The translations under genes were made by a program, and so were the position numbers. Below, one piece after another: positions 27,422-50,858 of a stretch of DNA of 64,000 nucleotides (positions are counted from its first letter, which is position 1; each line of letters opens with the position of its first letter). Source of the stretch: Alphaproteobacteria bacterium (GTDB lineage Bacteria; Pseudomonadota; Alphaproteobacteria; UBA9219); assembly GCA_009779745.1 (NCBI GenBank), contig WRDR01000006.1, positions 3,469-67,468 on the forward strand. The letters are read 5' to 3'. Under the pieces are notes generated by a model. That model made no database searches and was not told the origin of the DNA. It saw only the letters and a list, made by a program, of their open reading frames with translations.

Positions 27422-27515
27422 CCCTATTTTGCCTATTCCCGCCTTCGCGGGAATGACAGCCGGAGGGACAGCAACCTTCTACCACTACCCTGCACCAACT
27501 CCACACTTATAACTC
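27422..27515. repeat. MITE-like composite repeat, copy 1 (reverse orientation). Core palindrome ATTCCCGCCTTCGCGGGAAT plus an AACTCCACAC end
   Basis: Shares the core and flanks with the copies at 31452, 39115 and 50703. Confidence 0.75.
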
Positions 27516-28376
27516 CTAATTCCTAGTCCCTAGTTCCTCATTTCTGAAGTTGACTAGTTTCACGATGTTGATTTTGTCGAGTTTAGTATACGGAACAACA
27601 GAGAGAGAACCGTCTGCGCCTTCTACAATCTGCCCTACCGGAATGTTAGGAGGGAAAATGCCTCCGTGTCCGGAAGTAACGACAGCATCGCCTTCCTGCA
27701 CTAGGGCATCTTTTGCTAGGAAGAGCAATTTAGGCTCCATAGAATTGTCTCCGGCAAGAACGGCCCTGTCGCCGGATTTTGCGATCATGACCGGAATTCT
27801 GGAATTGGCATCTGTGATGAGCCAGACTCTGGAAGTCCAAACGCCGACTTCGACGACTCGCCCGACTAATCCCTCACCTGTAACTACCGCCATATCGGGA
27901 GCCGCGTTATTTTCAGCTCCTGCCGCAACAATGATGTTTCTTGATAACGCTGCGCCTGCATCGGCAATGACTCTGGCAGAGATGAATTCTGTCTTAGGTT
28001 CTGTTTGATAATTAAGAAGAGCTCTAAGCTCGGTATTTTCTTTCGCCAAAGAAACAGTGCTGTTTTTCCAAGCCAGCAGTTTTTTGTTTTCTTCTATGAG
28101 CAGCTGATTTTCAGAGTACAAATTGACCATCTCGTCGACCGAGGCAATGAGATTCTGAACAGCGAAAACAGGTCTGGACAGAGCCGCCAAAACCGGAGCG
28201 GAAGTATCTATGACAGAAGTACGTACTGATGCGACAACTAAAGGCTGGGATTTGGCTAAAATAATAATGCAGATAGAAAGAAGTATGAAAAAAACAAAAT
28301 AGAATTTCTGTACCAAACCTTTCCACTGAATGGCGATATTAGAGTTCTTAGCAAAATACGAACGCCCGGAAACCAT
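27516..28376 (-). CDS. mreC: rod shape-determining protein MreC
   Basis: 286 aa with N-terminal TM, coiled coil and a beta-rich C-domain. Confidence 0.85.
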   Translation of the reverse strand: MVSGRSYFAKNSNIAIQWKGLVQKFYFVFFILLSICIIILAKSQPLVVASVRTSVIDTSAPVLAALSRPVFAVQNLIASVDEMVNLYSENQLLIEENKKLLAWKNSTVSLAKENTELRALLNYQTEPKTEFISARVIADAGAALSRNIIVAAGAENNAAPDMAVVTGEGLVGRVVEVGVWTSRVWLITDANSRIPVMIAKSGDRAVLAGDNSMEPKLLFLAKDALVQEGDAVVTSGHGGIFPPNIPVGQIVEGADGSLSVVPYTKLDKINIVKLVNFRNEELGTRN

Positions 28377-28516
28377 TGCACAATCTTTGAATAATAAAAA
28401 AATAACTAAGTAAGGCTAACAAAAAGCAGTACCTTATTCGACTGCATTTTCAAACCATATTTTTAAAAAAAGGTTAAGTTTTATAATTTTTTTCAAATAT
28501 ATCGATTTTTTTAAAA

Positions 28517-29728
28517 TTATCCTACCATCGGGATTTTTACGCGTCTTTTCTCCGGGTCCTTTAAGTAAGCATTCAGTGTAGCTACGGCATTATCGACTCG
28601 CGGAACAACTAGAGCTCTTTCTGCGAGTTCTTCTGCCATAAAGTGGGCCATGGCACCTGCTCCTTCAGAGTGAAAAGCCCTGCGCCCGAGATTGTTCAAA
28701 GGATACCATAAATTGCGGTCTTCAGCACGCAGCCACAAGAAAGCAGCAGGAGCTAAAACGCCTCCATTATCTCTGGCCCACTTCAAAGCAGCCAATACCG
28801 CAGTCGTTCTCCATGCGTGTTTTTGCATGATAAGCTCCAGCTCTTCAGTGTTTTTAGGGTCTGAAAGAATTTTTCTAATTTCAGCTTTAAGTTCACTGCC
28901 GAGCGCAAAACCGGTTTTAGGATCCCAAGCCTGAGCCAGCCTGCCCAACAGCTCGTCGCTTTCTTCTCTGCGCTGAACTCCCCTCAGGGCAAACGCAGCG
29001 AGAAGAGCCTGTATATGTAAAGGCATCGCCGTTACGGATTTAAACCTGCTTCCGAGCTGTTTTATAAAAGCTCTTCTTGCAGCCGCCTTATCCGGCACTC
29101 CGTTTTCTATTGGAACACGGTTCCACGCAATCCATTCTTCAGGAGACAGAGCTTCGGCAAACAGCGGCAGTTTTTCCGGAACCTTTCCGCCTAAGAGTCT
29201 TCCGGACTTGGAAGGATTAATCTTTAGCATAGGAGAAATAACGGGCCACATTTTAGCCTGAGCAGCAATCAGAGATTCCAGAGTATGCTTTGTTTTGAAT
29301 TTGTTGTAAGGAGAAGTAAACAAAGTATACACAATGATTATAACCAGTGCGGCAACGGGAAGCCACCTGTAATACCTCGCGAAGTACGCTCCTAGCTGCA
29401 CTATGGAAGTGCCTGTCAGCCGGTAATACTTATCAGCCTCCTCCGGATATAAAGAGCTGAGTATCTCTGTGCCGAAGCAGGCATGTGCTGCTTGGACGGA
29501 CGCCTGAGAAACGCCGTCAATATGAGCGACTCGAAGCCAAACAAGACAGCCGTCCAACTCTCCGCCTTTGAAGAGATTCAAAATCCATATTTCGCCGAAC
29601 CTGAGCCAGCGAAAGAAATTATCGAGCCAGAAATTCCCGGTTGCATACCAAATCAGCCACGCAAGCCCGCATACAAACACTGCCACCAGCAGCAGCATAA
29701 TCATTGGGTCGTCTTTATTATCACTCAT
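28517..29728 (-). CDS. hypothetical inner-membrane protein with two TM segments and a large cytoplasmic domain. Possibly DotM/IcmP-like
   Basis: 403 aa with TM1 at about 9-32, TM2 at about 122-140, then a roughly 260 aa soluble domain. It occupies the position normally held by mreB. The DotM suggestion rests on topology and size only. Confidence 0.3.
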   Translation of the reverse strand: MSDNKDDPMIMLLLVAVFVCGLAWLIWYATGNFWLDNFFRWLRFGEIWILNLFKGGELDGCLVWLRVAHIDGVSQASVQAAHACFGTEILSSLYPEEADKYYRLTGTSIVQLGAYFARYYRWLPVAALVIIIVYTLFTSPYNKFKTKHTLESLIAAQAKMWPVISPMLKINPSKSGRLLGGKVPEKLPLFAEALSPEEWIAWNRVPIENGVPDKAAARRAFIKQLGSRFKSVTAMPLHIQALLAAFALRGVQRREESDELLGRLAQAWDPKTGFALGSELKAEIRKILSDPKNTEELELIMQKHAWRTTAVLAALKWARDNGGVLAPAAFLWLRAEDRNLWYPLNNLGRRAFHSEGAGAMAHFMAEELAERALVVPRVDNAVATLNAYLKDPEKRRVKIPMVG

Positions 29729-29729
29729 C

Positions 29730-49094: not shown

Positions 49095-49107
49095 TTTCCA
49101 TTTTCCA
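49073..49107. repeat. (TTTTCCA)x4 plus one degenerate unit at the 5' end of the 47838-49094 gene
   Basis: Counted directly. Confidence 0.85.
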
Positions 49108-49156
49108 TTTGTATGTTATAAGAGCTCTTGTGCAAACCTTTTTAAGATAGAAAATA

Positions 49157-50692
49157 ATGCTCTCCTCCTCCCTCACAGTCGCCTTCGAAGGAACCTCTGC
49201 TTTTACAATCAATGTTCAGGTGCTGGTTTCCAGCGGGAAAGCAGTAATGAACATAGTTGGTTTACCGGACAAGGCTGTTGGCGAAAGTAAAGAACGGGTG
49301 CGCGCAGCTCTATTATCTATGGGAGTAGATTTGCCGTCAATACATATTTCTGTGAATTTGGCACCTGCGGATGTCATTAAAGAGGGCACTCATTTTGACT
49401 TACCCATAGCGGTTGCATTGTTGGGAGCTTTGGGAGTCGTGCCTCAGGAGACTGTTTCGGAGTATTTATTTTTAGGCGAATTAGGCTTGGACGGAAAAAT
49501 ATCTCAAGTGTCCGGAGTTCTGCCTGCCGCCATACACGCTAAAAGTTTGAGCAAAGGCATAATCTGTCCTCCTAATAACAGCGCAGAGGCTTTATGGGCA
49601 AGCGGAATTTCTGTTCTGGCTCCTCCTTCTTTAAAGGCTCTGGTCAGGCATTTTAAGGGCGAAGATATTCTTGTGCCTCCGGAGCAGTCTTTGAAATTGT
49701 CAACAATGTCGTATCCTGATTTGAGCGATATTAAGGGACAGGAGACAGCAAAACGAGTCTTGGAAATCGCAGCCGCCGGCGGTCATAATCTTCTGATGAC
49801 AGGACCTCCGGGTTCCGGCAAAAGCATGTTAGCCTCAAGATTAATCGGAATACTTCCTCCTATGGAGCCGGAAGAGGCTTTGGAAGTGTCTATGATACAC
49901 TCTGTTTCCGGAATGCTGGGGGAAGGGGGCATAGTTCATCAAAGACCGTTCAGAGATCCGCATCATTCTGCGTCTCTGCCCGCTCTGATAGGAGGAGGAC
50001 AGAAAGCGCGCCCCGGAGAAGTTTCTCTTGCGCACAACGGAGTTTTGTTTCTGGACGAGCTGCCTGAATTCCAAAGGTCAGCACTGGAAGCACTAAGACA
50101 GCCTATAGAGAGCGGGAAAGCAGTTGTAGCAAGAGCTAATAATCATGTTACATATCCTGCCAGATTTCAGCTAATTGCCGCAATGAATCCTTGCCGCTGC
50201 GGGTACATGAATGATGCGAAAAGGTCATGCGGAAAAGCCCCGAAGTGCGCCATAGATTATCAGTCTAAAATTTCAGGACCTATCTTTGACAGAATAGATT
50301 GCCACATAGAAGTGCCTGCAGTGAGTGCTATGGATTTAGGGCTGCCTTCCAATGCGGAAAGCTCTAAGGATATAGCGGCAAGAGTGATAAGAGCTAGGAA
50401 GATACAAAAAGAACGGTATGCGGAGATAGCGAAAAAGCATAATATGTCCAAATCGCAGCTGCCGAGAACAAATGCACTGGCGGACGGCAAGCTGCTGGAA
50501 GAAGCGGTGGCTATAAATGACGATGCCAGAGCGGTTTTAGTAAAGGCAGTGGATACATTGCAGCTATCTGCCAGAGGGTATCATCGTATTTTGAGAGTGG
50601 CAAGAACGCTTGCGGACTTGGAAGGCAAAGACACAGTGACAGGGTTTCATGTGTCTGAGGTCGTTAGTTACAGACAAATAAGAGCATCTTAA
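49157..50692 (+). CDS. comM: Mg-chelatase-like AAA+ ATPase YifB/ComM
   Basis: Walker A 'GPPGSGKSM' and a Lon-like N-terminal domain in a 511 aa ORF. Confidence 0.85.
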   Translation: MLSSSLTVAFEGTSAFTINVQVLVSSGKAVMNIVGLPDKAVGESKERVRAALLSMGVDLPSIHISVNLAPADVIKEGTHFDLPIAVALLGALGVVPQETVSEYLFLGELGLDGKISQVSGVLPAAIHAKSLSKGIICPPNNSAEALWASGISVLAPPSLKALVRHFKGEDILVPPEQSLKLSTMSYPDLSDIKGQETAKRVLEIAAAGGHNLLMTGPPGSGKSMLASRLIGILPPMEPEEALEVSMIHSVSGMLGEGGIVHQRPFRDPHHSASLPALIGGGQKARPGEVSLAHNGVLFLDELPEFQRSALEALRQPIESGKAVVARANNHVTYPARFQLIAAMNPCRCGYMNDAKRSCGKAPKCAIDYQSKISGPIFDRIDCHIEVPAVSAMDLGLPSNAESSKDIAARVIRARKIQKERYAEIAKKHNMSKSQLPRTNALADGKLLEEAVAINDDARAVLVKAVDTLQLSARGYHRILRVARTLADLEGKDTVTGFHVSEVVSYRQIRAS

Positions 50693-50702
50693 AAGGAGCA
50701 TG

Positions 50703-50858
50703 GAGTGTTTAGAGTGGAATTGTTAGTGATTGGCGGTTGCTGTACCCCCATTTGTCATTCCCGCGAAGGCGGGAATAGGGCAACAAACAAAAAGACTCAA
50801 AACTTCGCAGAGCGAAGTTTTTCAATAACTCCACACTCCACACTCCACATTTCACACT
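50703..50858. repeat. MITE-like composite repeat, copy 4 (GGCGGTTGCTGTACCCCCA, TGTCATTCCCGCGAAGGCGGGAAT, AAAACTTCGCAGAGCGAAGTTTTT, (CCACACT)x3)
   Basis: Shares its core and flanks with the copies at 27422, 31452 and 39115. Confidence 0.75.

Follow-up and report, generated by a model that had tools for sequence, protein, structure and literature searches.

In the genome of an uncultured, termite-gut-associated alphaproteobacterium, we found that a 64-kb stretch of DNA (contig WRDR01000006.1, hereafter the window, to whose positions all coordinates refer) carries four copies of a short intergenic repeat built around a hairpin. The core hairpin belongs to the family formed by the neisserial NTS repeat and the Ssn-related motifs (SRM) of other bacteria. 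It has a variant 3' flank that also occurs in related gut Alphaproteobacteria, where the repeat is linked to genes for small GIY-YIG proteins. One copy was inserted between rsmG and parA, and a flanking module found in three copies derives, as read from its codons, from the end of rsmG. We consider it likely that the four copies are non-autonomous members of this repeat system, with flanks exchanged among them and the rsmG end copied to other sites.

Four hairpin copies in intergenic gaps

An earlier note on this DNA had placed four copies of a composite repeat in the gaps mreC/mreD, parA/rsmG, pilin/eptA and comM/dnaG. A search of the window with the core pattern TGTCATTCCCGCG[A/C]AGGCGGGAA[T/C] found the core at all four places, at 27435-27458 on the minus strand and at 31466-31489, 39138-39161 and 50753-50776 on the plus strand. 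The eight strand-matches compare with 0.13 expected by chance, and none of 100 shuffled sequences contained as many. The same four copies were recovered by a profile of 118 distinct cores from related genomes, with E-values from 1e-8 to 4e-13. The flanking genes were confirmed as mreC and mreD for copy 1, parA and rsmG for copy 2, a prepilin-type gene and eptA for copy 3, and comM (YifB) and dnaG for copy 4. The description of a dispersed, intergenic, hairpin-centred repeat family was thereby supported.

The core consists of an 8-bp stem (ATTCCCGC/GCGGGAAT) with a 4-nt loop, set between an asymmetric 5' flank (T)GTC, present as TGTC in every copy, and a 3' flank specific to the lineage. The palindrome, earlier described as perfect throughout, is perfect in copies 1 and 4 only; copies 2 and 3 end in GGGAAC and have a 7-bp stem. 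The DNA of the copies folded with energies well under those of shuffled sequences (z = -4 to -5.6). Copy 1 (27432-27458, E = 1.3e-10) reads (C)TGTCATTCCCGCGAAGGCGGGAATAGG on the minus strand, with the start codon of mreD 20 nt downstream. In copy 2 (31466-31499, plus strand, E = 1.2e-8), the core TGTCATTCCCGCGAAGGCGGGAAC is followed by a duplicated right arm GGGAATAGGG. The cores of copy 3 (TGTCATTCCCGCGCAGGCGGGAAC, 39138-39168, E = 2.9e-11) and copy 4 (TGTCATTCCCGCGAAGGCGGGAAT, 50753-50783, E = 3.6e-13), both on the plus strand, are each followed by AGGGCAA. Relative to transcription, the core is sense at mreCD and comM-dnaG and antisense at rsmG-parA. An Rfam search of the whole window at gathering thresholds returned one tRNA only, and a permissive search around copy 4 returned nothing credible.

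A variant of the NTS and SRM repeats

A full-text literature search for the core string ATTCCCGCG led to a 2025 study in Nature Communications (PMC11893778), which reported that about half of the neisserial dRS3 repeats are really 28-nt oriented NTS repeats (CGTCATTCCCGCGMAVGCGGGAATCYRG). NTS-like SRM were found to be widespread in bacteria, including Rhizorhabdus, Wolbachia, Rickettsia and Sphingomonas, and to be spatially tied to ssnA, a small single-domain GIY-YIG gene, often in the layout NTS-ssnA-NTS with inverted copies. The Ssn proteins of Neisseria and Wolbachia bind the hairpin and cut a few bases upstream of it, in single-stranded DNA only and on one strand only, and SsnA lowers meningococcal transformation by NTS-bearing DNA (PMC11893778).

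The window cores are identical to NTS over positions 2-24, which comprise the stem, the loop and the 5' GTC, and differ from it at the first base and in the 3' flank. With the published criterion for NTS (CGTCATTCCCGCGMAVGCGGGAATCYRG, at most one mismatch), the consensus had no exact match in the window, and at least three mismatches per copy were counted by eye, at position 1 and in the 3' flank. The full published SRM pattern, HGTCWYN(0-2)YYVSBRHN(0-5)WNVSBRGN(0-2)RNCYNB, had no match in the window either; all four copies matched it up to, and excluding, the 3' tail RNCYNB. When this tail was removed, the pattern gave six matches in the window, including all four copies, compared to a mean of 1.6 in Markov simulations. 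The 3' end of the window copies reads GGGAA(T/C)RGG, compared to GGGAATCYRG in the canonical repeat, and the variant can be written as TTGTCATTCCCGCGNAGGCGGGAA(T/C)RGG or as TTGTCATTCCCGCGAAGGCGGGAATAGGG, with the short form TGTCATTCCCGCGNAGGCGGGAAYRGG.

The window copies thus share with the NTS/SRM-SsnA systems an identical hairpin and 5' flank (GTCATTCCCGCG-M-A-V-GCGGGAA) and a multi-copy, intergenic distribution. Among the features of SRM, they have a hairpin palindrome with oriented, non-palindromic flanks (5' GTC) and are repeated far above chance. They differ in the 3' flank (T/C-R-G-G instead of T-C-Y-R-G) and in being singlets fused to other modules. Because the published search patterns fail at the 3' flank, we filed the copies as a variant of the NTS/SRM kind and not as strict members.

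The exact 22-mer GTCATTCCCGCGNAGGCGGGAA was found on at least 120 viral contigs of IMG/VR with GC contents of 39-72%, nearly always followed by TCCAG or TCTAG, which shows that the sequence is not peculiar to Neisseria and agrees with the wide distribution given in PMC11893778. The number of 22-mer copies on a contig (loci L002-L121; L-numbers denote comparison loci from other genomes and metagenomes) was sometimes high, with 13 on L016 and five on L014. The resemblance to the neisserial dRS3 repeat that the earlier note had pointed out is real, as copies 1 and 4 fit the 20-bp form ATTCCC-N8-GGGAAT. Its reading as a surprise or a convergence did not hold, since NTS/SRM repeats were already known to be widespread. 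Judged from the sequence, the likeness to Neisseria is one of membership in the NTS/SRM family, which was already known outside Neisseria, including in Alphaproteobacteria.

Like the dRS3-containing NIMEs of Neisseria, the window copies are mosaics of a conserved palindrome and variable neighbour modules. In NIMEs, pairs of dRS3 flank RS elements of 50-150 bp, often in arrays. In contrast, the window has no dRS3-RS-dRS3 arrays and holds four singlets spaced at least 4 kb apart, of which copies 2 and 3 end in GGGAAC; the neighbour modules are unrelated to RS elements, and the host is not Neisseria.

GIY-YIG genes beside the variant in related genomes

A scan for the variant GTCATTCCCGCGNAGGCGGGAAYRGG, with one genome per species, yielded at least 111 loci, most of them in metagenome-assembled genomes (MAGs) of gut Alphaproteobacteria. 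Among the matches listed, the hosts included six termite-gut bins named 'Rickettsiales bacterium', Candidatus Enterousia, and human, yak and roe-deer (ruminant) gut bins. The consensus of the variant loci was TTGTCATTCCCGCGNAGGCGGGAATAGGGYYT, also written TTGTCATTCCCGCG(C/A)AGGCGGGAATAGGG(C/T)(C/T)T, followed by A-rich sequence. Neighbouring core pairs were convergent in 37 of 59 cases, with preferred spacings of 62, 114, 119 and 135 nt, and such convergent pairs are REPIN- or MITE-like doublets (MITE, miniature inverted-repeat transposable element) that end in cores.

At two loci, L148 and L212, an open reading frame (ORF) of 108 amino acids (MKDYNFWVYILFDERAKGTYIGITNN...) lies between two inverted variant cores spaced by about 400 nt, and Pfam identified it as a GIY-YIG protein (PF01541, E = 2.5e-16). 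The variant brackets, in related genomes, a single-domain GIY-YIG gene of about 108 amino acids in the NTS-ssn-NTS layout. A tblastn search with the L148-type protein found nine homologues in genome loci, of which seven were no further than 153 nt from a core, and five more in viral loci beside canonical NTS cores. Homologues with 42-45% identity were located beside canonical NTS cores in other taxa. The variant-core loci with a GIY-YIG gene nearby were L148, L212, L202, L129, L160, L178 and L203. Among 150 non-redundant ORFs at most 250 nt from a core, the Pfam family that recurred most often was GIY-YIG. The GIY-YIG protein of the relatives gave nothing informative in searches of PDB and NCBIfam. 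By their domain, size and core-bracketed layout, these proteins may be likened to SsnA.

In related MAGs (L125, L203, L132 and others), one to three incomplete left arms, consisting of ..TTGTCATTCCCGC and about 10 nt in repeats, were often present ahead of the core. The left side of copy 2 in the window is similar to these arms (TGTCATTCC-GGC-TGTCATTCCC). Its partial left-arm duplicate TGTCATTCC-GGC occupies 31454-31465 on the plus strand, 8 nt from the start of parA (ATG, complement of 31444-31446). The repeated arms may be the footprint of a copying or repair process.

A mosaic of separable modules

The repeat had been described as one composite element with a shared left module, a second hairpin and a terminal (ACTCCAC)n. 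We found that the composite is instead a mosaic of separable modules, namely a left module (L), the core, a right module (R) and heptamer arrays, and is neither one unit nor a MITE. Copy 1 consists of L and core, copy 2 of core and R, and copies 3 and 4 of L, core, R and heptamers. The sequences taken as common to all copies, GGCGGTTGC and AGGGCAA, are present in copies 3 and 4 only: copy 1 has GAAGGTTGC in place of the former and copy 2 has nothing at that position. A looser left module is common to copies 1 and 4. The R module comprises a spacer and the second hairpin AAAACTTCGC-nnn-GCGAAGTTTT, which is present in copies 2, 3 and 4, and absent from copy 1. Recombination between conserved palindromes has been proposed for the neisserial NIME arrays.

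The boundaries of the copies differ as well. In copy 1, the L module (..GAAGGTTGCTGTCCCTCCGGC) and a heptamer-like GTGTGGAGTT occupy 27459-27519 on the minus strand, the heptamer-like part adjoining the mreC stop codon; this L module is also found in copy 4 and in L241. The other modules are on the plus strand. The R module of copy 2 (31500-31546) has an A-rich spacer, the hairpin AAAACTTCGCTTGGCGAAGTTTT (31517-31539) and then TCAATAA. Copy 3 begins with a left hairpin GGGCGGTTGCAACCCCC (39117-39133), a variant of the L module, and its R module (39169-39212) has a spacer, the hairpin AAAACTTCGCTTTGCGAAGTTTT (39183-39205) and TCCTTAA. It is abutted by (ACTCCAC)2.4 (39212-39228), which belongs to an independent, genome-wide repeat type. 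Copy 4 starts with an inverted heptamer-like TGGAGTGTTTAGAGTGGAATTG and the L module GGCGGTTGCTGTACCCCC (50701-50749), and its R module (50784-50828) has a spacer, the hairpin AAAACTTCGCAGAGCGAAGTTTT (50799-50821) and TCAATAA. Between this copy and dnaG lies (ACTCCAC)4.6 (50828-50859).

Arrays of ACTCCAC are absent from copy 2 and occur free of any core at five or more other sites (~1068, 7325, 16160, 20832 and 55205). They belong to a population of heptamer arrays found in intergenic regions across the genome and are not the terminus of an element. In the relatives, period-7 arrays were found near five of 163 cores (3%) and near 17 of 1,940 random positions (0.9%); given this weak association, the heptamer array was dropped as a defining feature of the cores. 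The terminal inverted repeats of a MITE, also suggested earlier, were reduced to imperfect heptamer-like inverted ends around copy 4 alone.

An insertion between rsmG and parA and the source of the R module

The second hairpin of copy 2 was confirmed to encode the end of rsmG (KLRQAKF*), as stated earlier. On the minus strand, copy 2 reads GAA AAA CTT CGC CAA GCG AAG TTT TGA, or EKLRQAKF*, so that RsmG ends in ..IIEKLRQAKF*, with the stop codon at 31515-31517. In the two nearest relatives, the element is absent and rsmG overlaps parA, with 17 nt shared in L235 and 1 nt in L265. Aligned with L235, the window has about 68 extra nt between the body of rsmG and the start codon of parA. The overlap without the element in the relatives, together with the extra sequence, indicates that an insertion took place and uncoupled rsmG from parA. 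No target-site duplication was visible at this junction in the comparison with L235, the sole junction that could be compared.

RsmG homologues end in a conserved ..(V/I)(I/L)(K/R)(N/D)L(R/Q), followed by two to five variable residues. We scored the window against a C-terminal position matrix of 119 RsmG homologues, with all six-frame hexapeptides of the window as background. IIEKLR was equalled or beaten by a fraction of 1.1e-4 of these hexapeptides, and its fit to the RsmG C-terminus indicates that the first hairpin arm (..ATT ATT GAA AAA CTT CGC) is native rsmG coding sequence. The claim that the element remodelled the 3' end of rsmG therefore stands for the junction, where the genes of the relatives abut or overlap, and is half reversed in its direction: the first arm belonged to rsmG, and the new part amounts to no more than about four final codons with the stop (QAKF*).

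The minus strands of copies 3 and 4 read VKEKLRKAKF* and VIEKLRSAKF*, respectively, both in frame with the stop. On the same matrix, VIEKLR of copy 4 scored at 5e-5, better than the IIEKLR of rsmG itself. Homology among copies 2, 3 and 4 extends through the hairpin and 7-8 nt further into the rsmG coding sequence. These features identify the R modules of copies 3 and 4 as apparent in-frame fossils of the last 10 rsmG codons, and the R module as rsmG-derived. The end of rsmG was copied along with the core and not merely supplied by it. Short repeats such as the Correia elements and the Rickettsia palindromic elements abut or enter housekeeping genes and alter their termini or terminators. The case of rsmG differs from these in that the gene's own 3' end joined the repeated unit and was copied elsewhere, and codons were not merely donated to the gene.

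In copies 2, 3 and 4, the second hairpin, read on the minus strand, has a 10-bp stem, a 3-nt loop and a T-rich tail. It scored as terminator-like on the rsmG/eptA strand in all three, and copies 2 and 3 lie directly after rsmG and eptA, respectively. Its GC-containing stem-loop, T-run and position downstream of a gene give it the predicted form of an intrinsic terminator. A metagenome scan for the second hairpin plus TAA returned no matches. Among the comparison loci, this hairpin was seen only on contigs of this species and in one unrelated viral terminator-like hairpin (L266).

The host genome in other samples

According to their record titles, the JGI sample and the related MAGs come from the guts of termites and other animals. 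The exact RsmG was found on a 155-kb contig of the ENA assembly ERZ27257304, and a 100%-identical cluster representative (P0001) came from a MAG named 'Alphaproteobacteria bacterium'. Identical ComM was found on contigs from ERZ27257295, JGI 3300010882 (Ga0123354) and Logan SRR10512950. The copies at comM/dnaG and at the pilin gene/eptA were base-for-base identical in four independent samples, and no strain polymorphism (empty sites or target duplications) was found at copies 3 and 4. Short-read contigs end right after the core, as expected of a multi-copy repeat. No further core was present in the 10 kb beyond the right end of the window.

One JGI metagenome that holds this species also contains L241, whose tetranucleotide composition correlates with that of the window at r = 0.96. 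L241 carries, at 3270-3490, a convergent doublet of cores spaced by about 160 nt, which shares the L module and the AGGGCAA flank with the window copies and is preceded by partial left-arm repeats (TTTTGTCATTCCCGACTCTCCTTC). From its sequence, L241 is probably from the same genome as the window, and with its window-like signature it suggests that this genome probably contains both singlets and doublets. An automatically listed ORF of 517 amino acids, which has no Pfam match and whose translation includes ..SRLRGND.., encloses the doublet.

Four candidates for an ssn gene of this host were considered among 120 homologues of the L148 protein, and all were assigned to other organisms. The two from the same sample had tetranucleotide correlations of about 0.5 with the window, compared to 0.94-0.96 in same-genome controls, and the other two came from other samples and had a different gene context.

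Heptamer arrays and other features of the window

Pyrimidine-rich tandem heptamers (ATTCTAC, ATTTTCC, ACTCCAC, CTCCTCT) occur in many intergenic spacers of the window. Arrays lie at 10629-10672, 31957-31990, 41342-41374, 45678-45713, 49075-49113 and 62030-62068, and those of the ACTCCAC type at 1063-1081, 7320-7346, 16152-16187, 20832-20859, 27497-27519, 39212-39228, 50827-50859 and 55204-55226. All 11 ACTCCAC-type matches are on the plus strand, independent of gene orientation. Core-free heptamer hairpins, in which inverted partial copies enclose 11-13 nt, were found at 7298-7346, 20807-20860 and 25007-25060 (e.g., GGAGGGTGGAGTT..AACTCCACCCTCC).

The array (GGAAAAT)4.3 at 31958-31987 lies in frame in rsmG (codons 70-80) and encodes ..VENGKWKMENE... 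The resulting insertion of about nine residues is absent in 14 of 15 aligned homologues, and the nearest relative (P0002) has a shorter, different insertion there. Its near-absence in the homologues indicates that a heptamer array entered the coding sequence of a housekeeping gene. Two minus-strand ORFs, 45228-45701 (DUF1036) and 47838-49094, both start with MENGKW.. inside a (GGAAAAT)n array (45678-45713 and 49075-49113, respectively) and continue with a signal-peptide-like stretch. Each GGAAAAT repeat contains an ATG, so three repeats give a start codon in every frame.

A candidate fifth copy of the core repeat at 12416-12490 (plus strand) is weak: it consists of TTTGTCCTTCCTGCGAAGGCGGG, about 22 nt of intervening sequence and GCGAAGGCAGAAACAGGGCTTTA, and its left half (12416-12441) and right half (12464-12488) matched the core profile with E-values of 0.009 and 1.4, respectively. 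Going by these matches, it is probably a decayed, interrupted copy. A look-alike at 52690-52713 (region 52690-52760, at the 3' end of dnaG) was dropped as not significant (E = 29 with the core profile). The 290-nt spacer after dnaG (52716-53005) contains a strong GC hairpin, GCACCCCCAACCTTCGGTTGGGGGGCTGC, at ~52886-52913, with no Rfam match. At copy 1, the gene caller of the source assembly placed a 165-amino-acid ORF (27009-27506, minus strand) that has no Pfam match and runs through the copy (..CHSREGGN..); the true mreD is at 26909-27412 in a different frame. This spurious ORF is an example of such repeats seeding false proteins. The window also encodes Dot/Icm type IVB components, with a protein carrying a DotM C-terminal domain at 28517-29728 (minus strand), between parB and mreC, and a DotH/IcmK match elsewhere, which hints at a host-associated lifestyle.

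Origin and spread of the copies

The findings above are probably best explained if the copies are non-autonomous singlets of an NTS/SRM-type repeat that landed in short intergenic gaps. The module pattern suggests that they would then have swapped flanking modules by recombination at the conserved core, resulting in a mosaic comparable to neisserial NIMEs and enterobacterial BIMEs. One insertion would have split the formerly abutting rsmG and parA. After the core had landed there, the last native rsmG codons AAA CTT CGC may have gained the inverted complement GCG AAG TTT, creating the 10-bp terminator-like palindrome and the four-residue tail QAKF with its stop. The segment made of core, spacer, palindrome and 7-8 nt more of rsmG would then have been copied to the spacers downstream of eptA and between comM and dnaG. 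Following the published biochemistry, the hairpin would be extruded when DNA becomes single-stranded in the course of replication, repair or uptake, and in cells with a cognate Ssn protein this protein would bind it and nick upstream of GTC. We infer both the action of Ssn on the copies in this genome and the way in which the copies arose.

Several observations weigh against this explanation. The 3' flank of all four copies does not fit the published NTS and SRM patterns, and they lack the C directly after the palindrome, on which binding by the meningococcal enzyme was found to depend more than on any other base (PMC11893778). They are singlets, unlike the doublets that dominate in the relatives. 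The 74 kb of the source contig that were searched, made up of the 64-kb window and 10 kb past its right end, contained no GIY-YIG or ssn homologue, a difference from the NTS/SRM-SsnA systems, and the copies could be relics without activity. The proposed sequence of events at rsmG is based on two relatives with RsmG proteins of only 67% and 53% identity. The spread of repeats by Ssn proteins was itself raised only as a hypothesis, and the mode of repeat multiplication was left open in the published work (PMC11893778).

Mobilization as REP or REPIN sequences by a RAYT, an IS200/IS605-like Y1 transposase, appears improbable, although a preprint by Bertels and Rainey assigned exactly this core, as the neisserial master sequence ATTCCCGCGCAGGCGGGAATC, to a REPIN population served by a Group 2 RAYT. 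The REP/REPIN-RAYT and BIME systems of Enterobacteria and Pseudomonas resemble the repeats described here as short extragenic palindromes that occur as singlets and inverted doublets, and for them, too, it is assumed that a dedicated, domesticated nuclease or transposase acts on the single-stranded hairpin. Convergent doublets of fixed spacing, the defining form of REPINs, dominate the relatives and occur on L241; the inverted two-REP unit was not found in the window. A tblastn search with E. coli TnpA_REP (sequence identical to PDB 4ER8; E < 0.1) was unmatched in the window and in L001-L241 (~2 Mb), with the limit that this was a single divergent query and not exhaustive. In the same sequence GIY-YIG genes were found 14 times, mostly beside cores; the gene associated with the repeat in relatives encodes a GIY-YIG protein and not an HUH/Y1 enzyme. 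These two results place the variant with the Ssn-associated family and not with the RAYTs, for the sequence examined.

That the whole 95-160-nt composite is a classical MITE, with GTGGAGT/ACTCCAC heptamers as terminal inverted repeats and a transposase encoded elsewhere, is a still weaker candidate. It would account for copy 4, bracketed by TGGAGTGTTTAGAGTGGAATTG and an inverted (ACTCCAC)n, and for GTGTGGAGTT on the corresponding side of copy 1, but both ends are present in one copy only and neither in copy 2. The heptamer arrays also occur without cores, including as the inverted pairs at 7298-7346 and 20807-20860, and are barely enriched near the cores of relatives. The R module is derived from a host gene, the rsmG/parA junction has no visible target-site duplication, and the domains listed for genes called around copies 1-3 (20-kb locus) and on either side of copy 4 include no transposase. 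We regard it as very unlikely that the cores are attachment or target sites of an IS110/Piv-type recombinase, with the copies marking past integrations. The dRS3 repeat is a documented integration target of the Nf/MDA neisserial filamentous phages through a phage-encoded recombinase (PMC11893778), and many contigs classed as viral carry the core. However, the domains listed for genes called near the copies include none of a phage or a recombinase, the neighbours shown are housekeeping genes, and a role as target leaves the multiplication of the sites unexplained. Just as little probability is given to the copies being purely cis-acting signals in RNA or transcription, such as terminators or mRNA stabilizers, kept by selection and without mobility. 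The intergenic position of all copies, their stable folds and the terminator form of the second hairpin on the rsmG/eptA strand would suit such a role, but the orientation of the core to transcription is inconsistent, the core has no T-run, and no Rfam family matched. The identical 22-mer across phyla, from 39% to 72% GC, points to recognition of the DNA by a protein and not to RNA stems selected independently.

Within the NTS/SRM explanation, a bolder and, in our estimate, rather unlikely possibility is that copies 3 and 4, with their core, spacer and rsmG fossil, are the footprint of NTS/SRM multiplication itself and that the motif without the C, used by many gut Alphaproteobacteria, marks a new Ssn specificity class. 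Copying would then start at the hairpin, where Ssn cuts just 5', read through the adjacent host DNA and stop at the next palindrome, and such read-through would resemble a one-ended or rolling-circle 'transduction' of flanking sequence.

Implications

The apparent oddity of a 'Neisseria' repeat in an alphaproteobacterium is removed by its membership in a very widespread hairpin family tied to GIY-YIG nucleases for single-stranded DNA. As the 3'-flank variant is missed by the published patterns, motif counts in gut Alphaproteobacteria are probably too low, and the variant offers a natural test of the determinants of Ssn specificity. The rsmG locus provides a concrete case in which a repeat separated two overlapping genes, endowed the upstream one with a new tail and a terminator-like palindrome, and then took part of its sequence to two further loci. 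It bears on how such repeats spread and on how they give rise to spurious ORFs, and together with the under-counted variant it gives the question of spread a small but concrete handle. If the footprint idea were true, it would mean a new Ssn specificity class in gut Alphaproteobacteria and provide a testable model of repeat spread.

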